From: Roseateles sp.
Lineage (GTDB): Bacteria > Pseudomonadota > Gammaproteobacteria > Burkholderiales > Burkholderiaceae_C
DNA: 24,000 nt
Direction: 5' to 3'
Assembly: GCA_019234295.1 (NCBI GenBank)
Contig: JAFALK010000030.1
Span: forward strand, 1 to 24,000
The translations under genes and the position numbers were made by a program. Below, in pieces: positions 460 through 19,037 of the stretch (positions within the stretch are counted from its first letter, which is position 1; every line of letters begins with the position of its first letter). The notes below the pieces were generated by a model that had not been told where the DNA came from, ran no database searches, and worked only from the letters and a program-made list of their open reading frames with translations.

Positions 460-984
460 GGCGTTGGTGTTTAAGAGACGGCTCCGATAGTGTCCATTGG
501 AGCAGCGGTGGCACATTTTCGGCTATCTTGAAGCGCCAAACGATTGATATGAACCGCCCCGCCGTGCGCGCCGCTCTGCTGCTGCCCGAGCGCGTCTGGG
601 CAGAATCGGCGCGCTCAGGCAAGATTTGCTGCTGGGGTGTCCAGCACGCTGACCTCGCGCGGCACTGACGTGGCTGCCTGTGGCTTGTTCGAACTCGATC
701 TCCTCGCCGACCGGCGCGCGCCCGTGCTCAGTCTCTGCGGTCTGCCTGACCGCTCCCCTATTCCGCTCGAAGCGGCGGCGCGGGCCGGCGCCACTCCCTC
801 GTGTTCGTGCCCGCTCAGGTCGCGCCCAGCGACGAAAGCCCGCCGGCCCGACAGCGCATGGCTAGCTGGATCGCCCCCAGCATGCGCGCGACGCCCCGGA
901 CACCGACGCGCCCATTCTTTCGGGATGGACACCCTGCGGTGACTCGAGCCAAATTACCGAACTTTGAAAAAAGGAAATACTCCA

Positions 985-1305
985 ATGCTCACCCATATCA
1001 ACCAAGCAAGGTCGTCAACCATTCCAGTCGCTGCGGTCATGGTTATGGTCGTTTCGATGCTTGTGACGAGTGCCTCAGCGACATCGCCCCAGCCTGTCAC
1101 TTGGAGCTACCCAGCCCTTCACGGGCTGTGCATCCTTGAGGCTGCCGCTGCCGCCAATGGCGAATCTGCGGCGTATCCGATCGGTCAGGTGGTCGCAACG
1201 AAGACCGGAAAATGGGTGTGCACCGCGGTGATTGCGCGCCAGGTGCCAGTGGAGTTGGCCGGCGTTTGGATCAAGCTTGGTCAGCAGCCCGCCAAGGTCA
1301 ATTGA
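985..1305 (+). CDS. Small secreted hypothetical protein (about 106 aa)
   Basis: The ORF track gives 964..1305 from a TTG. I prefer ATG at 985, which has aaggaaa 8-14 nt upstream. The N-terminus MLTHINQARSSTIPVAAVMVMVVSMLVTSASA-TS looks like a Sec signal peptide with an ASA cleavage site. The mature part has two Cys. It lies in an AT-richer patch with atypical codon usage, and I recognise no family. Confidence 0.4.
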   Translation: MLTHINQARSSTIPVAAVMVMVVSMLVTSASATSPQPVTWSYPALHGLCILEAAAAANGESAAYPIGQVVATKTGKWVCTAVIARQVPVELAGVWIKLGQQPAKVN

Positions 1306-1704: not shown

Positions 1705-3009
1705 TCATCCCTTGATGTAATCATGCCAAATTGTGATTGGCACCAATGCAGTCCAGCCACAAAAATCTCGCCGGGATGAATTTCCGGGCGCCACTTGGTC
1801 TGGCGCATAATTTTCCCAGAAGGTACCTGTGGCCTTATAGACTTCGGCCACACACCAGTAGAATTGCCGTGCCAGCCGTTCCGCTAGTGCGTGTTGACCA
1901 ACGGTCTCAAGGCCGCGAATCACCATATAGGTCGTTGGTGCCCAGGAACTGCCGTGCCAATAGCCGCCCTCGGGATCGAAGTCAGGGCTGTCGGCTGGCA
2001 GGGTGGCGACCGGAACTTGGCGCCAGAACTGGTTCGGGTCAGTGAGGTGGGCCAGCAAGGGCGCTAGGCGCGTCTCAGGCACCACACCTGCGACCAGGGT
2101 CCAGAACATGCCAATATGGCGGCGTGGGATGTGCTTGCCGTAGCCGAGGTCGTAATAGAACCCGTCGTCTTCGTTCCAGCAGTGCGCATTGATGGCGTCC
2201 GACGTTTCCTTTGCAGAAATTCGCAATCGTTGAATATCTGTATTCTGGCCGATATGCTGTGCAATCTCGCTCAAGTTATTGGCAAACAGCACCATCTGGG
2301 CCGACATATCGACCGAGCGCCCCTGACGGTTCCACTTGGCGTCCAGGTCACCATAGATGACCCAGTAAAATAGCGGGTTTGAGAACCTGATCCCATGGCC
2401 ATCATCGCGCCAGCCTGATGGGTAGCGCGGAATATTGTCCATTCCGGACCCTAGGGAGTCGCTGAAATACAGATGGTCCTCGCCTCGATAATTTGCGGCA
2501 AGAAAATCGAAAAAACGCACCAGCTTGGGGTACACGGTCTTCAGCCGTTCGAGGTCTCCGGTCTCGCCGAACAACTCAAGCTCAGCAAAGGCTAGCAAGG
2601 GCGGATTGATGCTGACTGGGTGGGACTTCGGCCAATAGGGTGTGCCGTCGGCCTTGTACTCGCGGCAAATGAAACCGTCCGCATCCTGCCGCTGATAAAA
2701 ATTGTCCAGCGCGTTGGCGATCGGTAATTCCTTGGGGTGGAATTTCGCGTAGGTCGCAATGAAGCAGGTATCCCAGAGGTAAATGCTGCCGCTGAAGGCG
2801 GCATCGACAAAGGGTTTTTTATAAACCGGGTCGTTCGGGCCGCCGCGGACCTTTTGCTTGGCCAGCTTTAGAGCTTGGTCATACATCTCGTGCTGCAAGG
2901 CTAATGGGACAGCCCAGTCTCTCGCTTCAGCGGCCGCAAACGCCTCGGTGGACATGGAGGCGGCCCATGCCGCAAGGCCTGACAAACATTGGCGACGAGA
3001 TAGCGTCAT
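1705..3009 (-). CDS. Exported (Tat-signal) glycoside hydrolase, GH63/GH37-like (alpha/alpha)6-barrel, MGH1-like
   Basis: 434-aa ORF. The N-terminus MTLSRRQCLSGLAAWAASMSTEAFAAA carries a twin-arginine motif (SRRQCL). Body motifs resemble trehalase/GH63-type enzymes: YLWDTCF, GSGMDNIPR, GGYWHGSSWAPTTYMVIRGL, FWENYAPD. Specificity cannot be read from the sequence. Confidence 0.8.
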   Translation of the reverse strand: MTLSRRQCLSGLAAWAASMSTEAFAAAEARDWAVPLALQHEMYDQALKLAKQKVRGGPNDPVYKKPFVDAAFSGSIYLWDTCFIATYAKFHPKELPIANALDNFYQRQDADGFICREYKADGTPYWPKSHPVSINPPLLAFAELELFGETGDLERLKTVYPKLVRFFDFLAANYRGEDHLYFSDSLGSGMDNIPRYPSGWRDDGHGIRFSNPLFYWVIYGDLDAKWNRQGRSVDMSAQMVLFANNLSEIAQHIGQNTDIQRLRISAKETSDAINAHCWNEDDGFYYDLGYGKHIPRRHIGMFWTLVAGVVPETRLAPLLAHLTDPNQFWRQVPVATLPADSPDFDPEGGYWHGSSWAPTTYMVIRGLETVGQHALAERLARQFYWCVAEVYKATGTFWENYAPDQVAPGNSSRRDFCGWTALVPITIWHDYIKG

Positions 3010-3230: not shown

Positions 3231-5231
3231 ATGAGACTTGGCATGCGGACAAAGTTGGGGGCGAAGCTCCTGGCAGCAGTCATCTTGCTGTTACCTTACC
3301 TGTGCCATGGCGCCGAAGACGCCTTCACGGATCTTCTGGACTTCCATGGCGCGCCCACCGGCGCTGATGACCGCAGTTTCAATATCTTCTTCGACGCGGG
3401 CGCCTGGCACGGCTACAGCCTCGTGCCGGAGAAGGATGTCGATACCGGCTTCACCGGCCCCTTCATCCACAGCCTGGGCAAGGGGCAATGGGTCGGGAGC
3501 TATGTGGGACGCCTTCATTTGCGCGACGCGGACACGGGTCGTGATCTGGCCCTCAAGCCCGATGCTGCATCAGGTCACGCCGCGCCCGGCTATCTGCAGC
3601 GCAGTTATTCGAGCGATGAGCTGAAGGTCACCGAGACCTTGTTTTTTGCCGATTCATGGCACGCCCTGGTGCGCATCGAGTTGAGCGCTCCCTCGCTGCG
3701 CCACATCGCCTTGCGCACGACCGGGCGCCCTGTGGTGTCACGCAGGGCAACGGTCTCTACGGCGGGCGACCAGGTGCTTCAGCGCTTTGCCGGCACCAAG
3801 ACCGTCTTGACCACACGCTTGATCGCCACCGGAGCCACCGCGCAGCCCGCTCGATTGACGGCCACGGAGTTCAGCCTGGCGCTGAACGAGACGCTGACGG
3901 TCGGCCCGGACCGCCCCACGGTGGTCAACATTGAACAGGCCGCGACCTACGACAACGACGTCGAACACCCCGCACCCGTCGATGTCGAGCATGCGTGGGA
4001 AGCCAACCGGCTGCGCTGGGCCCGCTATCTCGCCCCGGTCGCGTCTGTCCATCTCGCCGGTCTGCCCGACGACGAAGCTCGCCGCATGGCGGCCAAGGCC
4101 ATCGTGACGCTGATCGGGAACTGGCGCGCAGCACGCGGCGAACTGTTGCATGACGGCGTGATCCCGTCCTATTCAGATTCGAATTACAACGGCTTTTGGG
4201 CCTGGGACTCGTGGAAGCATGTCGCCGCCCTCGCGTCCATTGCCCCGGAGCTTGCACGCGATCAGATGCGCGCGATGTTCGATTATCAGACCGCGAACGG
4301 CATGGTGCCGGATTGCATTTTCCTGAACAAAGCCGACAACAACGCACGCGACAGCAAACCGCCCCTGGCCGGATGGGCGGCTTGGCGTCTGTTCCAGGCA
4401 AGCGGCGACCGTGACTTCCTGGCGACCATGTATGACAAGCTGGTTCGCTACCACCGCTGGTGGTATGCCGAGCGAGATCACGATCACAACGGGTTGGCCG
4501 AATACGGCGCCACCGACGGCACGCGGGTCGCGGCGGCGTGGGAAAGCGGCATGGACAATGCAGCCCGCTTCGATGACATCGAGATGCTCAGGAACGGCCC
4601 GCACGCATGGTCGGCTAACCAGGAGTCCGTCGACCTCAACACGTATCTGTATGAAGAAAAGCGTGATCTCGCGAACATCGCCGGCGTCCTTGGATTGGTC
4701 GATGAGCGGCAGAAATGGCTGGACGAGGCGGAAAGCTTGAAGGCTGTGGTCCAGGCGCAGTTCTACGATGCCAAGCTGGCATACTTTTTCGATAGAAGAT
4801 TGCACGACGGCGCCTTGATTCGCATCTTCGGCCCCGAGGGGTGGATTCCGCTGTGGGCCGGACTGGCAAGCAGCGAGCAGGCTCGGCATGTAGCGATCGC
4901 GATGACCGACCCTCGCAAGTTCGCCACCAAGATGCCATTTCCATCACTGGCAGCGGACGACCCGCGGTTTTCACCGGTCAAGGGCTATTGGCGTGGGACC
5001 GTTTGGATCGACCAGGCCTACTTCGCCGTTTCGGGCCTGCGGCGTTACGGGTTTGGCCGAGAGGCCGATGCCATGGCGCTTCGCCTCGTGTCCAGCGCCC
5101 AAGGGCTGGCCGCTCAAACGCCATTCCATGAGGTGTACGACCCGCTCACTGGCCATGGCCTGCATGCACCCAATTTCAGCTGGTCCGCTGCTCACTTCTT
5201 CATGCTGTTGGTGGATTCAAATCAGCACTGA
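3231..5231 (+). CDS. Exported GH63-family glycosidase, YgjK-like
   Basis: 666-aa ORF with SD aagggag 5 nt before the ATG. Sec signal MRLGMRTKLGAKLLAAVILLLPYLCHG-AE. A long N-terminal beta-rich region precedes catalytic-domain motifs resembling E. coli YgjK/GH63: FWAWDSWKH, DSKPPLAGWAAW, HNGLAEYGATDG, AWESGMDNAARFD, GYWRGTVWIDQAYF, HEVYDPLTG. Confidence 0.85.
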   Translation: MRLGMRTKLGAKLLAAVILLLPYLCHGAEDAFTDLLDFHGAPTGADDRSFNIFFDAGAWHGYSLVPEKDVDTGFTGPFIHSLGKGQWVGSYVGRLHLRDADTGRDLALKPDAASGHAAPGYLQRSYSSDELKVTETLFFADSWHALVRIELSAPSLRHIALRTTGRPVVSRRATVSTAGDQVLQRFAGTKTVLTTRLIATGATAQPARLTATEFSLALNETLTVGPDRPTVVNIEQAATYDNDVEHPAPVDVEHAWEANRLRWARYLAPVASVHLAGLPDDEARRMAAKAIVTLIGNWRAARGELLHDGVIPSYSDSNYNGFWAWDSWKHVAALASIAPELARDQMRAMFDYQTANGMVPDCIFLNKADNNARDSKPPLAGWAAWRLFQASGDRDFLATMYDKLVRYHRWWYAERDHDHNGLAEYGATDGTRVAAAWESGMDNAARFDDIEMLRNGPHAWSANQESVDLNTYLYEEKRDLANIAGVLGLVDERQKWLDEAESLKAVVQAQFYDAKLAYFFDRRLHDGALIRIFGPEGWIPLWAGLASSEQARHVAIAMTDPRKFATKMPFPSLAADDPRFSPVKGYWRGTVWIDQAYFAVSGLRRYGFGREADAMALRLVSSAQGLAAQTPFHEVYDPLTGHGLHAPNFSWSAAHFFMLLVDSNQH

Positions 5232-10566: not shown

Positions 10567-11436
10567 TCAGATCAGTCCGGGCCAGCGGTCTGCGCCCGCC
10601 TGGGCGTGCGCCACCTGCAGCGCCAACAAGGTCTCGCCTTGTAGTGGGCCGCGCTCGACGGCCTCGATGCCCTCGCGCAGGCGCGCCAAGCTGCGCGTTC
10701 CGATCAGCACGCTGCTGATGCCTGGCGTGAACGCTGTCCAGCGCAGTGCCAGTTCGGGCCAGGGCAGACCCAGATCGGGCAGGTGCAGTTCTTGCCAGCG
10801 GTCCCAGTACTGTCCCTCGCAGAAGTCGTCTGGACGCTGATGGCGCGCCCAAGCCAGGCCTGCCAGGGTGCGCTTGGCCAACACGCCCTTGGCGGTGTGG
10901 GCGATCTGCGCCTTGTTGGCCGGGTCGACCAGGCTGAGGCTGCATTGCACGCTGCTAAAGCGCGCATCAAGCAGCGCGTATGCAAGTTCGGCGTTCTCCC
11001 CCGAGTAGGCGGCCACGCGCAGCTTGCCGGCCTTCACGCAGTCGGCCAGGGCCTCGCACACCTCGCCGCGTTGCAACACATGCAGTGGGCATGAGTGCAG
11101 GTGTCCGATGTCGATGAAGTCGGTCTGCAGCTGACGCAGTGCACGTTCCACGCCCTGCACGATGCAGGGGTAGGTCCAGTCAGCCACGCCTTCCACGCCG
11201 TAGCCAAACTTGGTGGAGAGGACGAGCTCGTGACGGCGGTGCCTTAGGTGCCGACCGATGCGCTCTTCGCTGCGGCCATAGCCACGTGCGGTGTCGATCA
11301 GGTTGACGCCGAGGTCGAGCACGCCGTTCAGAAGGCGGCCAATCTCTGCCTCGTCGTCGATGCCGTCGAAGTGCATGGCGCCGAAGCCCACGCGGGTCAC
11401 CAACAGGCCGGTTTGGCCGAAAGGTAAAGGTGTCAT
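10567..11436 (-). CDS. Aldo/keto reductase
   Basis: The track ORF is 421 aa (10567..11832), but the AKR homology starts at MTPLPFGQTGLLVTRVGFGAMHF (ATG at complement of 11434-11436). An alternative start is MGLAVRD at 11457. AKR catalytic tetrad context is present: IDTARGYG (D, Y), LSTKFG (K), IGHLHS (H). The 132 upstream in-frame codons are Arg/Ala-rich and look non-coding. Confidence 0.88.
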   Translation of the reverse strand: MTPLPFGQTGLLVTRVGFGAMHFDGIDDEAEIGRLLNGVLDLGVNLIDTARGYGRSEERIGRHLRHRRHELVLSTKFGYGVEGVADWTYPCIVQGVERALRQLQTDFIDIGHLHSCPLHVLQRGEVCEALADCVKAGKLRVAAYSGENAELAYALLDARFSSVQCSLSLVDPANKAQIAHTAKGVLAKRTLAGLAWARHQRPDDFCEGQYWDRWQELHLPDLGLPWPELALRWTAFTPGISSVLIGTRSLARLREGIEAVERGPLQGETLLALQVAHAQAGADRWPGLI

Positions 11437-11485
11437 GTCGCGAACTGCCAAGCCCATGCTCGGCGCAGTTTCCGTTTGAGAGTGT

Positions 11486-11508
11486 CGCGTGCGGCGCGGC
11501 CGCACGCG
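11486..11508. other. Perfect 10-bp GC-rich palindrome/hairpin with 3-nt loop
   Basis: cgcgtgcggc gcg gccgcacgcg lies 30-50 nt upstream of the AKR start on the minus strand. It could be a protein-binding palindrome or an RNA hairpin. Confidence 0.5.
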
Positions 11509-11612
11509 TGCGTGATCGGCCAGTCTATACGGCTCAGTTGCGGAGCGCAGGTACAGCCAAGCAAGTCGTCGTTCGATATTCGTGGCTGCGACCGCTACCG
11601 CGTTGGGCCTGT

Positions 11613-11646
11613 CCGCCGCCATAAGCCGCCGCCATAAGCCGCCGCC
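11613..11646. repeat. Short tandem duplication, 13-bp unit ccgccgccataag x2 plus 8 nt
   Basis: Read directly: ccgccgccataag ccgccgccataag ccgccgcc, in the 635-bp non-coding gap between the porin and AKR genes. Confidence 0.8.
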
Positions 11647-12071
11647 TACGAGTGTCTGCTTGCCGGCGCCACATTGATACCACCGTTCAATGCATGCGCC
11701 CTTGACGCCTAGAGCAAACCTCAAGCTGATTGCGTTGTGGGGCACGATCCTGACCGCTTGAGCCATCTTCATGAGCTCCGTGGCTGTCCTGCCTGCCGCC
11801 ATGTTGGATGTCGCAGGGAGCGTCGCTGGCATGCTTCAGGCCAACGCTGTCAGGGGCCGGCACGCTTCTGTTCGGCGTGCCGAGCCCGCCATGGATGTGA
11901 GACGTGCGCTCGTCGCCTCGCTTCCCGGGGAAGATGCTATGTAAGACGTCTCGCGCCCGCGACCTGAGCTACAAACAGGGTCAAGGTGGCCGCCGAAGCG
12001 AGCGCGCATCGCTGATGTTTCGCAAGTGCAGCGCTTCGATCACGACCGCCATGACGCAAGACGCCTCCCCC

Positions 12072-13478
12072 TCAATACTCGGCGTGGATCCGAAGCCCGA
12101 AAACTGACACCGGTCCCCGGTCGGCGTTGTAGGCCGGGTTGCGCACGTATTGGTAGTCGGCGGTGATGCTCAGGGCCTTGCCCAGGCGAGCGTTGTAGTA
12201 GGCCTCGAGGATCTGCTCCGTCGCGTAGTGCAGCAGCTGGCCGTCGCCGATCACGATGCCCAAGCCTGCGGTTGCGAAGTACTGCCGGGCGTTAGCGGAC
12301 AAGCCGTTCCTCGCCAGCGCCAAGCCCGCACTGTGTTCGGGCTGGCCCCAAATGCGGCCCTTGACCTGCAGGCCGCCAGAGACGGACTCGTTGATGTCGG
12401 TGAAGTCGTACGCCTCGGTGCGGCCGTCGTTTCGGCTGTAACGCAGGAAGGCACCCGCGTCCGGGGCCAGCTCCTGCTCGGCGTTGATGACAAAGCCTTG
12501 CTTGCGCCGGCGCTGGCGCAAGGGCGCCAGATCGCTCGGCATCTCATCGCTCGCCTGGGCCTGATTGAGCGCATCAGCGTAGCTGGCCATACGAGCTTGC
12601 GTCAGGAAGCCGAGAAGTCGCACCGCGCCGGGATGCCCCATCCAGCTGTAGCGCCGCTCGACCTCGGCGATCCACTGACGCTGCTTGAACGTGCCGTCGA
12701 TGGTCATGTCATTCGGCCGCTTGGACATGGCCATCAGGCCGCCGCGCAGCGACCAGTCGCCGCGGGTCCACTCCGCCGCGCCGCCGCTGGTGAATCCCCA
12801 GGAATCGGCGGCGTAGTCGAAGGCCCCGCCGTCGATGATCGACCAATTCAAGAAATCCGCGCGAGGGTCGTGCGCGTAGGCGTTGGTGTCGAAGATGTCC
12901 ACGACGGAGAACTTGCCGAGGGTCAGCGTGATGCGGTCATCCGGCCGCGAGCCGGCCAACTGGTTGGCATCGGATTCGACCTCGCTGAGGGCCTCTCCCA
13001 ACGCGAAGGTCTGCCGCAGGAACGCGCGTGGCAGGCGCCCGTAGACGCTGTCGTGGCCGACCTTGTAGGCCTCGCCGCTCGTAAAACCGGCGACCCCCAG
13101 CGTGCCGGCCAGGCCGAAGCCCTGATCGAGTTCCGGGTTGAGGTAGATCTCACCGCCATTCCAGACCCGCACGCCCAGGAACAGAGTGGCGTCGAAAGTT
13201 TCTTTGGCGCTTTCATGGGAGGGCAGGCTGTTGGCGCCCGCGTAAGGCGAATTGAAACTGCCGTGTTTTTGCGTCATGTCGGTCAGCTGCACGTGCCAGC
13301 CCCAGGATTCGGGCGCGCTTTGCGGTGTTGCCGCCGGCGTGCTGGTCGGTGTCTCCTCGGGTTGCGGCGTCTGGGCCAGGGCCGGGGCGCCCAGCAGCGC
13401 GAGCGCCAGCAGGAGGGTTGCGGAGCGGGTGGCGCGCGCGTCAGAAGCGCAGGCAGCTTGGGTGATCCACTTGAACAT
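12072..13478 (-). CDS. OprB-family outer-membrane porin (carbohydrate-selective porin family; possibly MnoP-like)
   Basis: The track ORF of 764 aa is over-extended. The real start is MFKWITQAACASDARATRSATLLLALALLGAPALA-QT (ATG at complement of 13476-13478), with a signal peptide and a Pro/Thr-rich linker. Beta-barrel sequence follows with OprB-like blocks (SPYAGANSL, FLGVRVWNGGEIYLNPELDQGFG, TLGKFSVVDIFDTNAYAHDPRADFLNW, YDFTDINESVSGGLQVKG) and a terminal aromatic ...GLRIHAEY. Confidence 0.88.
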   Translation of the reverse strand: MFKWITQAACASDARATRSATLLLALALLGAPALAQTPQPEETPTSTPAATPQSAPESWGWHVQLTDMTQKHGSFNSPYAGANSLPSHESAKETFDATLFLGVRVWNGGEIYLNPELDQGFGLAGTLGVAGFTSGEAYKVGHDSVYGRLPRAFLRQTFALGEALSEVESDANQLAGSRPDDRITLTLGKFSVVDIFDTNAYAHDPRADFLNWSIIDGGAFDYAADSWGFTSGGAAEWTRGDWSLRGGLMAMSKRPNDMTIDGTFKQRQWIAEVERRYSWMGHPGAVRLLGFLTQARMASYADALNQAQASDEMPSDLAPLRQRRRKQGFVINAEQELAPDAGAFLRYSRNDGRTEAYDFTDINESVSGGLQVKGRIWGQPEHSAGLALARNGLSANARQYFATAGLGIVIGDGQLLHYATEQILEAYYNARLGKALSITADYQYVRNPAYNADRGPVSVFGLRIHAEY

Positions 13479-13567
13479 ATTCTCTATTTGGAAGTTATAG
13501 GGCGAAGCAAGGCCCGCCGGCACGTCTTTATCGACGCCGCGGATGCAATGGCGATGACGGTGAAGGG

Positions 13568-15217
13568 TCAGGCGTGCGCGAGCGCCAACTGCAGCACACG
13601 CACGATGGCCATGACAACGGCCACGAACAAGTACAGGCGCAGCACACCCATCCACAGCCGGGTTGAGGGCGTGAGCGGTGCCGGGGCCAAGGTGTGCAAG
13701 GGCGGCATGCGCCACAGCACCATGGGCTGCGTGGTCTCGCTGCCGGGCGCTGCCGCGCCCAAGGAAGGCGCGGCAAGGCGATAGGCCCGTACCGCGAGGG
13801 TGCTCAGCCCGATGACGGCAGTGAGCACGCCGCCGCCGACCAGAATCGCGATGATCTGGTCCTCGCTGATATCGGGGAATGCCACTGCGGCCGTCAGCAC
13901 GGTCGACAGGATGACGAGTACCGCCACGACAGCCGAGGTGAAGGCATTCGTGAGCTTGCCGTTGACCCAGGGGCCGAGCACCTGCTTGTCGTTGCACAGC
14001 AGCAGCAAGAAGACCGAGGCGCTGGGCAGCAGCACGCCGGCCAAGGTCTGCACGGCGTTGGTCAGCAGCCCGAGCGGCACGCCGGGCAGCAGCACCAGCG
14101 CTGCTGCGAGCACGATCAGTCCGCAATAGACGAAGTAAAAGCCCTTGGCCTCGCCGGGCTTGCGGTGCAGCGAGTGGTTCATCGACAGCACGTCGCCCAC
14201 GGCATAGGCGGTCGATAGGGAAACGGCCGCCGCGCCGATCACGCTGGCGTCGATGAGCGCCAGCGCGAACAACGTTCCCGCCCAATGCCCGTGGTAGTGC
14301 GCGAGACCCTTCGCCACCGCAAGCGCATCGGCGAACGCGCCGAACTCGGGCTTTCCGGCAAAGCAAAATGCCACGAGGCTGATGAGCGCGACGGCTCCCA
14401 GTACCACCAGCACGATGCCCAGCCAGAGATCCAGCCGCTCATAGCGAATGAAGCGCGGCGTAATGCGCTTGTCGATCACGTAGCTTTGTTGGAAGAACAA
14501 CTGCCAGGGCGCCACTGTCGTTCCGACGATGCCGATGATCAGCAGCATCACGTCGCTGAGCTTGGCGTCCTTGGGCAGCTGCACGGTGGCGAAGTCGCGC
14601 ACCAGCTGCCCCATCGGCGGATGGACCATCACGAACAGCGGCAGCAACACCAGGCTGCCGAGCACCAGGCTCAGCGCAAAGCGCTCGAAGCGGCGGAAGT
14701 CCCCGGTCCCGGCGGCCACCATCACCAGCATCGCGGCGATGCCGACGCCAACAATCCTTGGAATTCCCAGATAGTCCAGCCCCAGCGCGATGCCGATGAA
14801 CTCGGTCACGATCGTCAGCGCGTTCAGCAGGAACAGGTCAATCACGCTGAAGGCACCCCAGAAGCGGCCGAAACGCTCGAGGATCAGCCGCGCATGACCG
14901 ACCCCGGTCACGGCCCCCAGGCGCAGCACCATCTCCTGGTTCACATAGAGCACGGGGATCAGCAGCGCTAGCGTCCACAGCAGCGTAGTGCCGTAGTTCT
15001 GCCCGGCCTGCGCGTAGGTCGAAAAAGCCCCCGCATCGTTGTCACCCACCATCACGATCAGTCCCGGGCCGAGGATGGCCAGCAGCATTTTCAAGCGCTG
15101 CATGAGCTTGGGCTCGTGTTGGGAGTCGGTGAGCTTGATCGTTCCCAGCGCACCGCGAATATCGCCGACATGGGCGGCGTCCAGCACGGCCGAAGTCATC
15201 GCACGTGTGTTTTCCAT
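13568..15217 (-). CDS. NRAMP/SLC11-family cation transporter with a non-canonical metal-binding site (NRMT-like), 549 aa
   Basis: SD aggaga 6 nt before the ATG. NRAMP-type TM1 region is LAILGPGLIVMVGDNDAGAFSTYAQAGQNYG and TM6 region is LLIIGIVGTTVAPWQLFFQQSY. I count about 13 hydrophobic segments, with two extra C-terminal ones (IIAILVGGGVLTAVIGLSTLAV and LWMGVLRLYLFVAVVMAIVRVL). The canonical DPGN and AxxMPH motifs are replaced by DAGA and TxxAPW. Confidence 0.9.
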   Translation of the reverse strand: MENTRAMTSAVLDAAHVGDIRGALGTIKLTDSQHEPKLMQRLKMLLAILGPGLIVMVGDNDAGAFSTYAQAGQNYGTTLLWTLALLIPVLYVNQEMVLRLGAVTGVGHARLILERFGRFWGAFSVIDLFLLNALTIVTEFIGIALGLDYLGIPRIVGVGIAAMLVMVAAGTGDFRRFERFALSLVLGSLVLLPLFVMVHPPMGQLVRDFATVQLPKDAKLSDVMLLIIGIVGTTVAPWQLFFQQSYVIDKRITPRFIRYERLDLWLGIVLVVLGAVALISLVAFCFAGKPEFGAFADALAVAKGLAHYHGHWAGTLFALALIDASVIGAAAVSLSTAYAVGDVLSMNHSLHRKPGEAKGFYFVYCGLIVLAAALVLLPGVPLGLLTNAVQTLAGVLLPSASVFLLLLCNDKQVLGPWVNGKLTNAFTSAVVAVLVILSTVLTAAVAFPDISEDQIIAILVGGGVLTAVIGLSTLAVRAYRLAAPSLGAAAPGSETTQPMVLWRMPPLHTLAPAPLTPSTRLWMGVLRLYLFVAVVMAIVRVLQLALAHA

Positions 15218-15243
15218 TCTTGTTCTCCTGCAAGCAATGGAGC

Positions 15244-15426
15244 TCAGCGGCGCGAGCCGTAGGAGTCGACGAGCAGGCTGAAGCCGCTACGCTGCGGTGG
15301 CTGACCTGCAGGCTGCAAGGCCCGTTGAATCAGCCGGCTCGCATGTTGGCGCAACAGCGAACGCGTGGCGTTGAGCGGCCGGGCCGCGACGGGAATCTTG
15401 CGAATCGAGGAAATGAGGAAGGACAT
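15244..15426 (-). CDS. Small basic ORF (60 aa) immediately upstream of the NRAMP-like gene
   Basis: MSFLISSIRKIPVAARPLNATRSLLRQHASRLIQRALQPAGQPPQRSGFSLLVDSYGSRR. A strong SD sits at good spacing (ccgcaAGGAGAaacctATG). By my count GC3 is about 80 percent, similar to neighbouring genes. The stop lies 26 nt before the NRAMP start. It has no TM segment and no recognised family. Confidence 0.45.
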   Translation of the reverse strand: MSFLISSIRKIPVAARPLNATRSLLRQHASRLIQRALQPAGQPPQRSGFSLLVDSYGSRR

Positions 15427-15429
15427 AGG

Positions 15430-15486
15430 TTTCTCCTTGCGGTTTGGCGGAGAAACCGAGGCACTCAGTCGAGCGTCGTCCTCCGC
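15430..15486 (-). promoter_or_regulatory. Leader with mutually exclusive helices, one of which sequesters the SD of the small ORF
   Basis: Minus-strand RNA reads GCGGAG(15452-15447 region)...UUUCUCCGCcaaaccgcaAGGAGAAAcc-AUG. UUUCUCC can pair with GGAGAAA, the SD, in a 7-bp stem with a 12-nt loop. Alternatively CUCCGC pairs with the upstream GCGGAG (6 bp). On the + strand the elements are tttctcc 15430-15436, ggagaaa 15449-15455, gcggag 15447-15452 and ctccgc 15481-15486. Confidence 0.3.
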
Positions 15487-15944
15487 AGCCGAGCCGCGCG
15501 GTTGGTTAGCGTCAAATCAGATGATGGGTGAGGCGCGCGCTGGCGCCTACTAGGGTCGGGATCCAAGCGTTCCTCCGTTCAGAATTGAAGACAGATATGG
15601 CTCACGCCCTTAGCGGGCAAGCAGCTGGGCACTATCGGGCCAAGCCAGCAGACCCGCACGCAAGCGGCGTGTCGGCCAAATGGTCAAGGCATCCAGTGCA
15701 GCGGAATTGACGGGGTCCAGAGACTGAGAGGACATTCCAGCCGCGGCCGGTCGCGCACGCCGCGACGGCGGCACGGCGAGCGCTCCACGCTCGGTCTTCG
15801 TCAGGGCTTCACGGTCTTGCAGCATGTCCAGTCCTCGGGCAAAGCCGGGCACCGCCATGCGCGCACAGAGCAAGCAAACGCGTCGAGCCCGGACACGCGC
15901 ACGCGCGTCATGGCTCGAACAACAGTGAATCAGAGTGGGGAGAA

Positions 15945-15961
15945 AAGCCCCGCAAGGGCTT
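15945..15961 (-). terminator. Weak orphan intrinsic-terminator-like hairpin (minus-strand orientation)
   Basis: Minus strand reads AAGCCC ttgcg GGGCTT followed by ttctcccc. The stem is 6 bp and its 3' TT plus the following TTCT give GGGCUUUUCU. No annotated minus-strand gene lies upstream of it. Confidence 0.3.
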
Positions 15962-16144
15962 GTCAATCAGGCGCCCGGTCCGCTCGGAACCGATGCGCCT
16001 GGGAGCAGGCGTCAGACGGTCGAGCAGTGAGCGGCCATCACGGCTCGCTTCAATTCACTGTAACAACTGGCACTGTCCACGCACGCGGCTCCGAAATTTT
16101 GATGGCCTCATTTTGGCACCGACGGTGCCTCGAAGTCAACAAAA

Positions 16145-16165
16145 TATAGTATCCGGGGGTATAGA
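16145..16165. promoter_or_regulatory. Second RcnR/CsoR-type operator-like site (AT-rich arms flanking a G5 tract)
   Basis: tatagtatccgggggtataga. The 12-mer GGGGTATAGAAC matches GGGGTATAGTAC on the minus strand of the rcnA-rcnR operator at 11 of 12 positions. Both sites are preceded on the + strand by AAGTCAA, 7-8 nt upstream of TA(C/G)TAT. Confidence 0.35.
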
Positions 16166-16477
16166 ACGTGAGCGACCTTTTATTCGCATGGACGCAACAT
16201 ACGTCGTGCCCGAAGCCAGCCCTCGTTCGCCTCGGCTCGGGGGCATTTCCGCTACTCGTGTCCCCTACTCAGACGCGCCCCCAAGCAACCGCGGCTCGGC
16301 CTGGTCCAACCGGCTGCCACCGAGAGCATCGAACGGCCCGGCGTCTCGCTTCATCAGGGTCGACCCGCTGCGAGCTATTTGCGCAGGCAGCGTCTTTACA
16401 CTGGAGGTCACTTCTACGCGAAGGGCGCCACCTTGCGCATACGCGACCGCGTCGCGGTCTAGTAGAATCACGATCAC

Positions 16478-16586
16478 TCCTCGGGGAGTAGCCGCTTCAG
16501 GCGCAACGCTTGAAGGCGCTCGTCAACATACTTGCCGATTGCATCGGCATGGCGTGCGCGGCAAATGCTTGGCAAGACCGATGGCA
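16478..16586 (+). promoter_or_regulatory. yybP-ykoY (Mn2+) riboswitch aptamer
   Basis: Conserved blocks are in the right order: GGGGAGUAG (16483-16491), GUCAACAUAC (16522-16531) and GGCAAGACC (16571-16579). Intervening hairpins are CGCUUCA/UGAAGGCG (16493-16518) and UUGCCG/CGGCAA (16532-16564). It aligns by eye to the L. lactis yoaB aptamer (GGGGAGUAGC...UUGACAUAC...AGCAAGACC). A -10-like TAGAAT lies at 16463-16468. Confidence 0.85.
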
Positions 16587-16637
16587 GATGTCCTTCCCAG
16601 GTCGGGGCGCGGGACTTTTTGCCATCGTGTTTTGATC
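16579..16637 (+). terminator. Riboswitch expression platform: terminator-like structure overlapping the 3' strand of aptamer P1
   Basis: Outer helix CGATGGCA (16579-16586) / TGCCATCG (16620-16627) encloses an inner hairpin GTCC..CCC aggtc GGG..GGAC (16590-16615). The inner hairpin is followed by TTTTT, and the outer helix by TGTTTTG. The 5' arm overlaps the CCGA that closes the aptamer, which is compatible with a Mn2+-ON antitermination design. Confidence 0.45.
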
Positions 16638-17556: not shown

Positions 17557-18672
17557 TCACGCGGGCAAATGCCGCAAGCCCTCGATGCCGATGTACAGAC
17601 CGACTATCAGGATCAGCACACCCGAGAAGTAAGGTGCCTTGCGCGCGAAGTCCCCGAAACCGCTCCAGCGTTTCGAGACATGCTTGACGCTCAGCGCGGC
17701 CATGGCCCCGGAGCTCACCATCGTGATCGCGAGGCCAATGCTGAAACACAGCACCAGCGCCGCTCCCAGCGTGAATTGCTTGAGCTGGAGACACAGCAGC
17801 AGCACGGTGATCGAGGCTGGGCAAGGAATCAGACCGCCCGTGAGGCCGAAGATGATGATCTGCCCCGTCGTCACCTCGCGGTTGGCGAAGCGCCGCTTAA
17901 TGTCGTTGGCGTGCGCGCGCTCGTGGGCGTCCTGGTACTCGAGGTCGCCGACTTCGAGACCCTCGTGGGCATGCTCGTGCTCCTGGTAGACAAGGTCGAA
18001 GTGGTGGCGATGGCTGTGATGCCCGAGGCTCAGGCGGGCATCGAATTCGTGCGGTTCCGGAACTTCGTCGATCGACTCGACGAAGCCTTCGCGCTGGACG
18101 AAACGGAACACCTGGCTCGCGTCGTCGGCACGGGTAGTCGTGACCTCGACGTCGTCGGCGCCCCAGACCTGCCCCTTCTCGGTGTGGAGGCGGAAACGCG
18201 GCGGCACGCCGGTCTCAAAGATTTCGAGGCGGACAACGCCATGCCCGGTGTCGACGCGCTGGGGAGCGTCGCCGTGGTGATCGTGTCCGTGATCATGGTC
18301 ATGGTCATGGTCATGGTGGTGCGCCTCCGCATGCTGGTCGCGCCAGTTTCGCCAGAGCATCCACAGGGCTACGCCGACGATGAGAACGGCCGAGGCGACC
18401 TGGAAATAGGGCTCGGTGGCCTCGGCATTCCAGTTGCGACCGAAGTACAGCCCGGCGAGGGCCACGAGCCATACGACGGCCGTATGCGAGAGCGTGGCCG
18501 ACAGGCCCAGCAGCACCGCCTGCGTCAAGGTGCCACGGATCGCGACGATGAAGGCCGCCATCATGGTCTTGGAGTGGCCAGGCTCGAGCCCGTGCAATGC
18601 GCCGAGCAGGATCGCGCTGGGCACGAACAGCCATGCATTGCCCTGCTGCAGAAGGGTCGCAAATTCGGTCAT
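17557..18672 (-). CDS. rcnA: Nickel/cobalt efflux protein RcnA (NicO family) with enlarged His-rich loop
   Basis: I chose the start MTEFATLLQQGNAWLF (complement of 18670-18672), because the track start 18723 would overlap the operator. The sequence follows E. coli RcnA closely: LHGLEPGHSKT, a His/Asp run HHHDHDHDHDHGHDHH, YQDAHERAHANDIKRRF, FGLTGGLIPCPASITVLL, KRWSGF..APYFSG. Confidence 0.9.
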   Translation of the reverse strand: MTEFATLLQQGNAWLFVPSAILLGALHGLEPGHSKTMMAAFIVAIRGTLTQAVLLGLSATLSHTAVVWLVALAGLYFGRNWNAEATEPYFQVASAVLIVGVALWMLWRNWRDQHAEAHHHDHDHDHDHGHDHHGDAPQRVDTGHGVVRLEIFETGVPPRFRLHTEKGQVWGADDVEVTTTRADDASQVFRFVQREGFVESIDEVPEPHEFDARLSLGHHSHRHHFDLVYQEHEHAHEGLEVGDLEYQDAHERAHANDIKRRFANREVTTGQIIIFGLTGGLIPCPASITVLLLCLQLKQFTLGAALVLCFSIGLAITMVSSGAMAALSVKHVSKRWSGFGDFARKAPYFSGVLILIVGLYIGIEGLRHLPA

Positions 18673-18724
18673 GATGCGTCGCCGGGCGCGCCTTCGGGCG
18701 TGTCCGTTCAAGTCAATTTCCATG

Positions 18725-18755: not shown

Positions 18756-19037
18756 ATGACCCACACCGTCAAAGGCCAAAAGGGCCTTCTCACCCGCGTC
18801 CGGCGCATCAAAGGCCAGGCCGAAGCGCTCGAGCGCTTGATCGAATCCGGCGAAGACATGGAGTGCGGACGGGTGCTGCAGCAGATCGCTGCAATACGAG
18901 GTGCGGTGGCCGGGCTGATGGCAGAGGTCATCGAGGGGCATCTGCGCGAACACGTCGCGGCCGAGGGCATCTCGGCCGAACAAAGGCGCGGTGAGATCGA
19001 GGAGCTCGTGACGGTGCTGCGTACCTATCTGAAGTAG
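18756..19037 (+). CDS. rcnR: RcnR/CsoR/FrmR-family metal-responsive repressor (DUF156)
   Basis: 93 aa, MTHTVKGQKGLLTRVRRIKGQAEALERLIE... The family pattern R..RI.GQ...L is present. Ligand fingerprint positions are His3, Cys37, His62 and His66 (H-C-H-H), as in Ni/Co-sensing RcnR. The gene is divergent from rcnA. Confidence 0.9.
   Translation: MTHTVKGQKGLLTRVRRIKGQAEALERLIESGEDMECGRVLQQIAAIRGAVAGLMAEVIEGHLREHVAAEGISAEQRRGEIEELVTVLRTYLK

Follow-up and report, generated by a model that had tools for sequence, protein, structure and literature searches.

Nramp-related magnesium transporters

Of the routes by which bacteria take up Mg2+, the NRMT-like carriers are understood least, and only one of them has been studied biochemically. 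This carrier, EleNRMT from Eggerthella lenta, accepts Mg2+ and Mn2+ as substrates but not Ca2+, and its transport is not coupled to protons (PMC8806188). The NRMT group carries the signature DxxG-TxxA/T, in which the Asn of canonical NRAMPs is lost and the Met is replaced by Ala (PMC8806188). In EleNRMT, the T224A mutation abolished Mg2+ transport, D55 and Q379 were essential, with mutation of Q379 strongly impairing transport, and E133 is kept (PMC8806188). When the full NRMT site was placed in EcoDMT, the protein still did not transport Mg2+ and kept its Mn2+ transport (PMC8806188). Transplanting the site residues was thus not enough to make this NRAMP take hydrated Mg2+, and such residues alone are no proof of Mg2+ transport. 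Control by an M-box has been proposed as a marker of Mg2+ specificity for NRMT proteins (Shin 2014; Ramanadane 2022).

A long-form NRMT-like transporter

The window analyzed here is a 24,000-nt stretch of DNA from Roseateles sp. Its minus strand contains a transporter gene with the following features at the metal-binding site.

13568..15217, minus strand: long-form NRMT-like (Nramp-related) transporter gene, an ORF with an ATG start encoding 549 aa
15026..15037, minus strand: TM1 ligand motif codons D61-A62-G63-A64 (canonical DPGN, NRMT DAGG)
14504..14524, minus strand: TM6 ligand motif codons G232-T233-T234-V235-A236-P237-W238 (canonical GAxxMPH)
14801..14803, minus strand: codon E139 in TM3, aligned with EleNRMT E133
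14048..14050, minus strand: codon Q390 in TM10, aligned with EleNRMT Q379

The original prediction called this ORF NRAMP-like but not an ordinary Mn/Fe MntH, and both statements hold. The Pfam Nramp profile (PF01566) matched residues 66-420 with E=1.5e-78 and 264.8 bits against a gathering cut-off of 29.8, whereas the NCBIfam MntH model (NF001923) gave 96.2 bits, below its cut-off of 430. In HMM alignments, the best PDB match was EleNRMT (7qia) with 187.7 bits, as against at most 72 bits for any canonical NRAMP structure and 28.7 bits for the NRAT structure 8ont. The identity to EleNRMT is 32% over 415 aa. An AlphaFold2 model of the transporter (pLDDT 73, pTM 0.77) was nearest to 7qia_A in Foldseek (TM 0.87), and NRAMP and NRMT structures together spanned TM values of 0.77-0.87. 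Canonical NRAMPs showed 17-24% identity in the structural alignments, and the YcsG model 9a52 ranked 26 with 17% identity. A neighbor-joining tree, built without bootstrap, placed the transporter inside the NRMT-like clade and apart from ScaDMT and BfraNramp. The protein thus has the profile match of the Nramp superfamily and, in the predicted structure, the 10-helix inverted-repeat core plus TM11 of the LeuT fold. Judged by these sequence comparisons, it is not an MntH; within the Nramp (PF01566) superfamily it falls on the NRMT-like branch as a long-form protein, a placement that we regard as established. It belongs to a widespread long version of a known family. The common labels 'Nramp family divalent metal transporter' and 'manganese transporter' are probably misleading for such long-form proteins.

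How does the metal-binding site compare? Ligand columns were set by HMM alignments to solved structures and by a 58-sequence MAFFT alignment, and both reproduced what had been read by eye. D61-A62-G63-A64 aligns with the D-P-G-N of ScaDMT and BfraNramp and with D55-A-G-G58 of EleNRMT, and the stretch from G232 to W238 aligns with canonical G-A-x-x-M-P-H and with G-T224-T-I-A227-P-W229 of EleNRMT. In other words, the soft-metal ligands are exchanged (Ala64 stands for Asn, Thr233 for Ala, Ala236 for Met, and Trp238 for His), while Asp61, Glu139, and Gln390 are kept and invariant in the alignments. Canonical motifs hidden elsewhere in the protein had been named in advance as evidence against this assignment; the whole 549-aa protein contains no DPGN, DPG, PGN, or MPH string. 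The ligand motifs are not due to chance, because NDAGA is present in 77 of 80 orthologous loci and GTT[VI]APW in 79 of 80, and alignment A1 shows no variation at the motif residues of TM1 and TM6, T233 and A236 among them.

The NRMT signature given in the original prediction agrees with the literature. The Thr and Ala of TM6 (T233 and A236, the TxxA/T element) and the loss of Asn agree with the published signature (PMC8806188), but TM1 reads DxxA rather than DxxG, with D61 kept and A64 in place of the Gly. Among NRMT-like representatives in the 58-sequence alignment, this column holds G, A, S, or T. Residues of the proton pathway are also replaced: W238 and Q243 stand for the two His of TM6b, and I136 aligns with the TM3 Asp of ScaDMT. 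The site (DxxA-TxxA) differs from the NRAT signature DxxN-AxxT. In Cellier's Slc11 outgroup and in the MntG/YcsG groups, the TM1 Asp is replaced by Gly; the transporter keeps D61 and so falls outside these Asp-less groups, for which the name 'G-motif' is in use (PMC12873925).

Proposed function and genomic context

We favor, with a probability of roughly two in three, an inner-membrane carrier of the long-form NRMT-like type that imports hydrated Mg2+, probably Mn2+ secondarily, without proton coupling, and that is induced at low Mg2+. Such a LeuT-fold carrier would take up hydrated Mg2+ down the membrane potential, and the loss of Asn and Met would enlarge the site for the hydrated ion, as in EleNRMT. 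We infer the substrate and the lack of coupling by analogy with EleNRMT, in which Thr224 is needed for Mg2+ transport. Mg2+ had been suggested as a substrate in the original prediction, and three contextual links lend it independent support: M-boxes upstream of orthologs, neighboring MgtC or MgtE_N+CBS genes, and an MgtL-like ORF in the window itself.

An M-box lies directly upstream in 10 of 15 informative actinobacterial loci, whose orthologs carry identical ligand motifs. In all ten, it is on the same strand, 240-600 nt upstream; in seven of these (L040, L044, L045, L047, L048, L058, and L071), it matches RF00380 with 115-131 bits, and in L067, L075, and L076, it was detected by nhmmer (E<=1e-41). 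No M-box was found in 11 proteobacterial ortholog loci. A search of window positions 15150..16500 likewise returned no Rfam element at E<=5, and thus neither an M-box nor a Mg_sensor (mgtA leader). Of the 80 loci, 21 have MgtC as a neighbor, which in 17 cases is a same-strand gene downstream of the transporter, and an MgtE_N+CBS gene is a neighbor in nine, in eight of which it starts within ~70 nt of the transporter stop. Both are absent from the window, but its nearest relatives (L081, L001, and L002) have the gene order transporter-OprB-MgtC. The repeated pairing bears on what MgtC does in bacteria without MgtA/MgtB, a role that has been termed elusive (PMC12810186).

In the window, the gene next to the transporter encodes a porin.

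12072..13496, minus strand: OprB-family porin gene, 72 nt downstream of the transporter (Pfam OprB, E=7.9e-49)

Counting the window, 19 of 81 loci have a homologous porin beside the transporter. The two genes are probably co-transcribed, and the porin would let the cation cross the outer membrane. MnoP was considered as a family precedent for it and dropped, as the MnoP literature found names no family.

Some observations count against the Mg2+ reading. The TM1 Ala replaces the published NRMT Gly, and EleNRMT also carries Mn2+. The window has no M-box or other Rfam element upstream of the gene and no MgtC, and its neighbors include Mn2+ and Ni/Co export genes. An alternative is therefore a chiefly Mn2+ (transition-metal) importer that substitutes for MntH with an NRMT-like site and whose Mg2+ transport is weak and physiologically irrelevant. 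EleNRMT moves Mn2+ well, EcoDMT mutants with NRMT site residues retain Mn2+ transport, and 'manganese transporter' is among the database names. NrmT of A. capsulatum restored a Mn2+-uptake mutant completely but a Mg2+ mutant only in part (PMC4072509). Moreover, a Mn2+-riboswitch-controlled GDT1/UPF0016 exporter gene lies ~1.4 kb upstream of the transporter. However, the window's sole riboswitch is this Mn2+ aptamer, which serves the GDT1 gene and is encoded on the strand opposite to the transporter; no Mn riboswitch is present on the transporter's own strand or in its leader. The M-boxes stand before orthologs with identical site residues, and the recurrent neighbors are MgtC and MgtE_N+CBS genes, not Mn regulators. 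In addition, the Met that excludes alkaline earths is missing, and Thr233, whose counterpart is needed for Mg2+ in EleNRMT, is invariant. A chiefly Mn2+ importer thus appears unlikely.

Genes for CsoR/RcnR-type repressors, which also count against Mg2+, flank ~20 of 80 orthologs, ~0.2-1.6 kb upstream of the transporter and mostly divergent. They are RcnR-type (H-C-H-H-like) or CsoR/InrS-like (HDHIDHC). They would fit Ni2+/Co2+ or general divalent-cation handling under such sensors, with the link to Mg2+ genes being secondary, as would an RcnR-RcnA pair near the transporter in the window and its closest relatives and the recurrence of the leader before efflux operons (below). Mg2+ channels such as CorA pass Co2+ and Ni2+ too. 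But repressors of this type derepress when metal is abundant, which is an odd logic for an importer, and none directly adjoins the window gene. The actinobacterial M-box control points to Mg2+, and the ligand positions offer no His- or Cys-rich site suited to Ni/Co, making this explanation quite improbable. A non-metal or unanticipated substrate, or a sensor (transceptor) signaling via the C-terminal module, is very unlikely: Nramp-related groups are diverse and uncharacterized save for EleNRMT and a hypothesized MntG (PMC12873925), and two motifs outside the site (below) are conserved without known function, but the metal site never varies at its acidic and polar residues D61, E139, and Q390, the fold is nearest to a proven cation carrier, and every contextual signal is metal-related.

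The leader and a putative attenuator

Import of Mg2+ by the carrier would be induced at low Mg2+ through a leader of ~890 nt, which includes the following elements.

15996..16153, minus strand: promoter-like site (TTGACT-N18-CAAAAT, 16139..16110) and a conserved 5' leader block of ~110 nt
15465..15566, minus strand: uORF1, MgtL-like leader ORF with a TTG start, MDPDPSRRQRAPHPSSDLTLTNRAARLRRTTLD
15479..15486, minus strand: element A, GCGGAGGA, inside the end of uORF1
15449..15457, minus strand: element B, GGTTTCTCC
15428..15436, minus strand: element C, GGAGAAACC, the Shine-Dalgarno (SD) of uORF2
15244..15426, minus strand: uORF2, 60 aa, with its stop 26 nt before the transporter ATG

The 20-nt core of the leader recurs in 16 metagenome contigs. 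uORF1, with an AGGAG-type SD, is present in 16 of 20 loci that have the core, and no uORF1-like ORF was matched on the control strand. Its product begins with MDPDP in 14 loci (MDPDPS in the window), with MEPAP in L092, and with MDPEP in L095. MgtL bears an EPDP motif at residues 2-5 (PMC11282234), and uORF1 is likewise a short uORF with acidic-Pro-acidic-Pro at these residues. The leader is lineage-specific, because among the 80 orthologs an MgtL-like uORF is found upstream of just three, those of L001, L002, and L081, which are the loci most closely related to the window. uORF2 is annotated as a gene in L081, and its C-terminal half is conserved in L001, L002, L087, and L097. The idea that small upstream ORFs (60 and 118 aa) encode MgtE-like accessory proteins was dropped, as they had no Pfam match.

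Elements A, B, and C, which together span 15428..15486 on the minus strand, can form alternative pairings. When sequences were folded one by one and compared with shuffles, the B:C hairpin had z=-3.76 in the window and z between -3.5 and -5.5 in nine of 11 loci. In each of the 11 distinct loci, the minimum-energy fold has the uORF2 SD base-paired, and changes in one arm are matched by changes in the other; A:B pairing was also computed. RNAalifold, run on a MAFFT alignment of the attenuator segments, returned 0 pairs, the arms being misaligned there. According to these computed folds, the alternative hairpins can sequester the next ribosome-binding site. One possible mechanism is that at low Mg2+ ribosomes leave the mRNA while translating the MDPDP start of uORF1, whereupon A would pair with B. 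This pairing would free the uORF2 SD (element C), and translation of uORF2 would then carry ribosomes to the transporter start. The analogy with MgtL consists of the five-residue motif and the computed hairpins; if it holds, Mg2+ sensing by leader peptides would not be confined to enterobacteria. In support of the Mg2+ reading, other contigs have this leader before mgtC alone (L082 and L088) and before the N-terminus of a P-type ATPase (L096), but it also precedes HlyD + AcrB/CzcA-type RND efflux operons, which counts against the Mg2+ reading.

Terminal motifs and the long-form subfamily

The original prediction also noted extra length and two added C-terminal membrane segments; the alignments confirm the first, and the AlphaFold2 model predicts the second.

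13568..13882, minus strand: C-terminal extension, aa 446-549 and stop, absent from EleNRMT and canonical NRAMPs
13772..13864, minus strand: predicted TM12, aa 452-482 (AlphaFold2 helix, hydropathy peak)
13574..13669, minus strand: predicted TM13, aa 517-548 (AlphaFold2 helix, hydropathy peak)
13697..13714, minus strand: WRMPPL motif codons W502-R-M-P-P-L507, in the predicted cytoplasmic TM12-TM13 loop
15137..15190, minus strand: N-terminal cytoplasmic motif AVLDAAHVGDIRGALGTI, aa 10-27, conserved in A1

The extension adds 104 residues beyond residue 445, where the core that aligns with EleNRMT ends. It brings the predicted helices to 13, as against the 11 expected of an NRMT, and has no relative among PDB sequences, where a chance match (E=0.36) was all that was found. 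In long-form relatives, extensions of 91-120 aa were seen in the MAFFT alignment. Of 80 orthologs, 71 have WRMPPL exactly or with one residue changed, and the motif is conserved in A1; NRAMP topology suggests a cytoplasmic position for its loop. In the N-terminal motif, L12, D13, G18, I20, G22, A23, G25, and I27 are invariant in A1, and AlphaFold2 confidence is low there.

The long-form subfamily covers at least 592 species. Its Proteobacteria and Actinobacteria sequences share >60% identity, and it is abundant in soil members of both phyla. On the evidence of the alignments, the motifs and the extension are a conserved trait of a widespread subfamily, not a quirk of the window gene, and the architecture is therefore less surprising than it could appear from one sequence. 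In the subfamily, nature has exchanged Gly for Ala in the binding site and added a conserved C-terminal module, which may serve in regulation or docking. Tentatively, and with less confidence than for Mg2+ import itself, the transporter, the OprB-family porin, and (in relatives) MgtC might form an undescribed envelope-spanning Mg2+ module. In such a module, the two-helix C-terminal part and the WRMPPL loop, possibly with the N-terminal motif, would be where cytoplasmic proteins that report Mg2+ status, such as MgtC or the MgtE_N+CBS protein, dock or gate the carrier. The switch of the module in Roseateles/Pelomonas-type Burkholderiales would be a new attenuator with an MgtL-like peptide, which would also control mgtC, P-type ATPase, and RND efflux operons.

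Comparison with known systems

EleNRMT (PDB 7QIA/7QIC/7QJI) is the best match in both sequence and fold. The two proteins share the TM1 Asp, TM6 Thr-x-x-Ala-Pro-Trp, TM3 Glu, and TM10 Gln, and both lack the proton-pathway His; the equivalent of the TM3 Asp is Ile136 in the transporter. At 32% identity, however, the transporter belongs to a different sub-branch of the NRMT-like clade, has Ala64 for Gly58 and PWQ for PWM, and adds two predicted helices (13 versus 11), the WRMPPL loop, and the N-terminal motif. Canonical NRAMP/MntH proteins (ScaDMT, DraNramp, and EcoDMT) and the clade B protein BfraNramp share with it the Pfam family and the LeuT fold as well as the Asp of TM1, the Glu of TM3, and the Gln of TM10, whereas their DPGN and A/CxxMPH motifs are missing from the transporter.

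CabNRMT of Clostridium acetobutylicum (Ca_c0685 / Ca_c3329; Shin et al. 2014) is likewise an Nramp-related gene tied to Mg2+ homeostasis. As far as its description allows comparison, orthologs of the window gene resemble it in standing behind M-boxes, some beside an MgtE N-domain protein. In the window, the MgtL-like uORF leader takes the place of the M-box. The MgtE_N+CBS gene is downstream in long-form loci but upstream in published NRMT cases. NrmT of A. capsulatum (ACP_2977), also compared by description, is an NRMT-group gene with an MgtE-like neighbor; the only other tested NrmT without an M-box, it reportedly acted mainly as a Mn2+ transporter (PMC4072509).

The leader can be compared with the mgtA leader and MgtL of Salmonella and E. 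coli and with the mgtCBR operon. Like uORF1, the ORF for MgtL is short and encodes acidic-Pro-acidic-Pro at residues 2-5. uORF1 has ~33 codons compared to 17 for MgtL and no Rfam Mg_sensor match, the computed switch would target a ribosome-binding site rather than a known Rho site, and the gene served encodes an NRMT-like carrier, not a P-type ATPase as in mgtA. As in the mgtA leader, mutually exclusive hairpins, here computed, would decide downstream expression, and as in mgtCBR, a gene for a proposed Mg2+ importer is linked to mgtC in the relatives of the window.

Family assignment and metal-binding residues

The gene examined here is an NRAMP-like frame with a Shine-Dalgarno-type sequence.

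13568..15217, minus strand: transporter gene, ATG-initiated, 549 codons, AGGAG ahead of the start

The original prediction that the product is Nramp-like and not an ordinary MntH is borne out by profile searches. Residues 66-420 of the protein score 264.8 bits with Pfam Nramp (PF01566), and the protein scores only 96 bits against the NCBIfam MntH model, whose cut-off is 430. In an HMM search of all PDB chains, the Eggerthella lenta NRAMP-related Mg2+ transporter (EleNRMT, 7qia; 187.7 bits, E=3.4e-54) led by a wide margin, and second was a clade B Nramp from Bacteroides fragilis (10ky; 72 bits). ScaDMT, DraNramp, EcoDMT, the human NRAMPs, and NRAT reached at most 49 bits. PF01566 comprises Slc11, an outgroup, and the sister NRMTs (PMC9606685). 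The protein is almost certainly an NRMT-like carrier rather than a MntH.

The ligand columns were assigned from HMM alignments to PDB chains and from a 58-sequence MAFFT alignment, and both gave the same assignments.

Metal-ligand positions of the transporter, EleNRMT, and canonical NRAMPs
TM1: transporter D61; EleNRMT D55; canonical D
TM1: transporter A64; EleNRMT G58; canonical N
TM3: transporter E139; EleNRMT E133; canonical E
TM6: transporter T233; EleNRMT T224; canonical A
TM6: transporter A236; EleNRMT A227; canonical M
TM6: transporter W238; EleNRMT W229; canonical H
TM10: transporter Q390; EleNRMT Q379; canonical Q

Neither a DPGN nor an MPH string occurs anywhere in the 549 residues and the alignments concur; therefore, the TM1 and TM6 residues originally read by eye are correct. 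The proposed likeness to the NRMT site holds, with one departure. T233 and A236 of TM6 are as in EleNRMT, and A64 replaces its G58 and so departs from the clade signature DxxG-TxxA/T (PMC8806188). Among NRMT-like representatives in the 58-sequence alignment, this position takes G, A, S, or T.

An extended C-terminus shared by a subfamily

The EleNRMT-aligned core stops at about residue 445, and 104 more residues follow. The two additional C-terminal transmembrane segments anticipated from the sequence are supported by an AlphaFold2 model (30-sequence alignment, mean pLDDT 73, pTM 0.77), which places helices at 452-482 and 517-548 with a low-confidence loop between them. Both coincide with hydropathy peaks. 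With a cytoplasmic N-terminus, as in NRAMPs, TM11 would end outside, TM12 would return inside, the loop 483-516 would be cytoplasmic, and TM13 would end outside. The distribution of Lys and Arg lends this topology weak support. No sequence relatives of the extension were found in the PDB.

More than 8000 database proteins match the transporter. The closest are all 540-560 aa long. Besides the ligand residues, they have in common an N-terminal motif (A-V-L-D-x-A-H-V-G-D-I-R-G-A-x-G-T-I) and, in the TM12-TM13 loop, the motif WRMPPL. Roseateles puraquae and Pelomonas aquatica (85-86%) are the closest named relatives among the matches listed. When one genome per species was scanned, a relative turned up in at least 592 genomes. 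The best 80 of these show 61-86% identity along their full length, and they span Beta-, Gamma-, and Alphaproteobacteria as well as Actinobacteria (Kitasatospora, Streptomyces, Arthrobacter, Cellulomonas). Among these 80, NDAGA is present in 77, GTT[VI]APW in 79, and WRMPPL or a one-residue variant in 71. Judged by these sequences, the extra length and the ligand residues are a subfamily trait and not a peculiarity of one gene.

Among 50%-identity cluster representatives, long forms reach down to ~45% identity, and short EleNRMT-like forms (~425-465 aa) have at most 43%; EleNRMT itself is 32% identical to the transporter. In a neighbor-joining tree of the core, built without bootstrap, long and short NRMT-like forms group apart from ScaDMT and BfraNramp. 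The long forms are a nested clade in this tree and EleNRMT lies on another sub-branch. Long forms of Proteobacteria and Actinobacteria are 61-70% identical, unusually high across phyla, which suggests that the gene may have been transferred horizontally between them. Many hosts give the impression of being taxa from acid soil or peat (Paraburkholderia, Bradyrhizobium, Roseiarcus, Methylocella, Dyella, Kitasatospora).

Genomic neighborhoods

ORFs flanking the 80 orthologs were clustered, named with Pfam, and tabulated. MgtC (PF02308 and PF21770) was present in 21 loci, downstream on the same strand in 17; an OprB-family porin in 19, the window counted; and a 429-aa MgtE_N+CBS protein in 9, starting within ~70 nt of the transporter stop in 8. 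M-box aptamers lie directly upstream on the same strand in seven actinobacterial loci (115-131 bits, Rfam), and an nhmmer profile added three. Thus 10 of 15 informative actinobacterial loci carry an M-box, all with GDNDAGAF and GTT[VI]APWQLF motifs; none was found in 11 proteobacterial ortholog loci. One or more Mg2+-linked features occur in at least 29 of the 80 loci. In a Streptomyces locus (L071), two divergent M-boxes face each other, 950..1122 (-) and 1730..1912 (+); one precedes the long-form transporter, and toward the other side lies an MgtE_N+CBS homolog, upstream and on the opposite strand, which the second M-box faces.

CsoR/RcnR-family repressors are encoded upstream in about 20 of the 80 loci. 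Such genes precede the transporter or its leader in L001, L007, L011, L013, L017, L020, L023, L027, L028, L033, L036, L043, L066, L069, and L074, and also in L083, L086, L087, L088, and L093. They are of two types, mostly divergent: RcnR-like (His3...C...H-x3-H) and HTSH...C...HDHIDHC. The window has no such gene at the corresponding upstream position.

The surroundings of the transporter in the window are as follows.

1705..3009, minus strand, and 3231..5231, plus strand: divergent MGH1-like/GH63-type glycoside hydrolase genes, unrelated to the transporter finding
10567..12071: stretch with an aldo/keto reductase gene
12072..13496, minus strand (as the transporter): OprB-family porin gene, 72 nt downstream of it
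16471..16637, plus strand: yybP-ykoY Mn2+ riboswitch aptamer (RF00080), 55.5 bits
16662..17252, plus strand: GDT1/UPF0016-family gene directly after the riboswitch, probable Mn2+/Ca2+ exporter
17557..18723, minus strand: RcnA-like gene (NicO family, His/Asp-rich loop)
18756..19037, plus strand: RcnR-like repressor gene, divergent from the RcnA-like gene

In a contig with a 94% identical ortholog (L081), the genes run RcnR-NicO-GDT1-...-transporter-OprB-(100 aa)-MgtC. No mgtC was found in the whole 24 kb of the window. The aldo/keto reductase gene stands where the closest relatives carry the 100-aa ORF and mgtC (9462..10505 in L081), which suggests a local replacement after the porin. The riboswitch and the GDT1 gene point away from the transporter leader, and the same pairing recurs in L001 with a 103-bit riboswitch. 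The RcnA-RcnR pair, a probable Ni/Co efflux unit, is kept beside the locus in L001, L081, and L088.

A leader with an MgtL-like small ORF

No gene is annotated for ~1.25 kb upstream of the transporter. Alignment of this region with L081, L001, and L002 delineated a leader in which the promoter-like site, the block, uORF1, and uORF2 are conserved.

16139..16110, minus strand: conserved promoter-like site
about 15996..16095, minus strand: nearly invariant ~110-nt block
15566..15465, minus strand: uORF1, an MgtL-like leader ORF encoding MDPDPSRRQRAP..., beginning MDPDPS
15428..15486, minus strand: alternative-pairing segments A, B, and C, at the end of or downstream of uORF1, with the Shine-Dalgarno region
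15426..15244, minus strand: uORF2, its stop 26 nt ahead of the transporter ATG

The promoter-proximal block (~15996..16153, minus strand) had no match in Rfam. RNAalifold found 25 pairs in it, 6 with compensatory changes, which is only moderate structural support, so the block may be either an RNA element or a DNA operator. A 118-codon putative ORF lies within the leader, 15610..15966 (-). Its DNA is conserved in L081, which has a called gene of 93 aa there, but not in L001 or L002, and it has no Pfam match.

The core of the block, CGTGGACAGTGCCAGTTGTT, 20 nt long, recurs in 16 contigs of a metagenome scan (L082-L097), often with a divergent CsoR/RcnR-type gene just upstream. The next gene is a long-form transporter in five, mgtC alone in two, a P-type ATPase N-terminus in one, and HlyD RND components in three, one with an AcrB/CzcA-type gene; the other five have no recognizable product or too little downstream sequence. 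The leaders before HlyD-type adaptor genes are in L083, L085, and L094, with the AcrB/CzcA-type gene following in L094. In L088 (6045..7061), a CDF cation-efflux gene comes after mgtC. Therefore, the leader regulon is broader than Mg2+ import.

uORF1, with an AGGAG-type Shine-Dalgarno, is present in 16 of 20 loci carrying the core, and its conservation is limited to the first ~12 residues. Neither the control strand nor any of the other 76 scanned genome loci contained it. MgtL of E. coli and Salmonella starts M-E-P-D-P; when Mg2+ is low, EPDP makes ribosomes drop off, and the mgtA leader is switched in this way (PMC11282234). For Burkholderiales, no leader of this kind was found in the literature searched.

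How could uORF1 act on the operon? Segment B, GGTTTCTCC, is computed to pair either with C or with A. Segment C, GGAGAAACC, is the Shine-Dalgarno sequence of uORF2, and segment A, GCGGAGGA, falls within the final codons of uORF1. The Shine-Dalgarno is paired in every minimum-energy fold (11 of 11 distinct loci), with z = -3.5 to -5.5 in 9 of the 11, and the arms covary (AAACC/GGTTT, ATACC/GGTGT, TTCACC/GGTGAA, TCCTC/GAGGA, AAAACC/GGTTTT, ACCCCTC/GAGGGG). These folds support, short of proof, a translation-coupled attenuator in which low Mg2+, by aborting the translation of uORF1, would switch the operon on.

Physiological role

Mg2+ uptake is the favored role of the transporter, with a probability of roughly 0.65-0.7. 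The analysis established the NRMT-like placement, the ligand substitutions, which spare Asp, Glu, and Gln, the conserved extra module, and, in orthologs, Mg2+-riboswitch control and Mg2+-homeostasis partners. Mg2+ limitation would induce the operon through the MgtL-like leader, cations would pass the probably co-transcribed OprB-family porin, and the transporter would take up hydrated Mg2+ electrogenically and uncoupled from H+, with Mn2+ a likely second substrate. The C- and N-terminal motifs may have a regulatory or docking role.

NRMT-type site residues alone are no guarantee of Mg2+ transport, and EcoDMT given the NRMT signature residues did not acquire it (PMC8806188). Import of Mn2+ is a less likely alternative: an NRMT from A. 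capsulatum that no riboswitch precedes acted as a carrier of Mn2+ (PMC4072509). Mg2+ uptake must also be read with the caveat that the gene adjoins Mn2+ and Ni/Co export genes in the window. A pure Mg2+-starvation account leaves unexplained the frequent CsoR/RcnR-type neighbors and the RND operons behind the leader, and it offers no reason for a derepressing metal sensor beside a presumed Mg2+ importer. A Ni/Co or general cation role is improbable, and an unanticipated substrate or a sensor role more improbable still.

Comparison with described NRMTs

The kind of protein is already known from descriptions of NRAMP-related Mg2+ transporters that appeared in 2014 and 2022. Their discovery was prompted by M-box Mg2+ riboswitches ahead of the genes; CabNRMT rescued Mg2+ auxotrophy, and an MgtE-N-domain gene adjoins many NRMT genes (PMC4072509). 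In mycobacteria, M-boxes precede 'manganese transporter-type' genes (PMC12810186). EleNRMT is an H+-uncoupled transporter of Mg2+ and Mn2+ that does not carry Ca2+; the absence of Asn and Met widens its site so that a largely hydrated ion fits, the T224A mutant no longer transports Mg2+, and D55 and Q379 are both indispensable (PMC8806188). Nramp-related proteins are paraphyletic and uncharacterized except for EleNRMT and a hypothesized MntG (PMC12873925). No description of the long form or characterization of a member was found in the literature searched. To a specialist the gene should be useful rather than astonishing. The most novel by-products are the MgtL-like leader and the recurring linkage of transporter and MgtC. 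In contrast to EleNRMT with its 11 helices (PMC8806188), the transporter has 13 predicted helices and a conserved loop motif, and it differs from described NRMTs further in one signature residue, in its partners, and in its regulation. It is therefore best classed as a variant of the NRMTs and not as a strict member.
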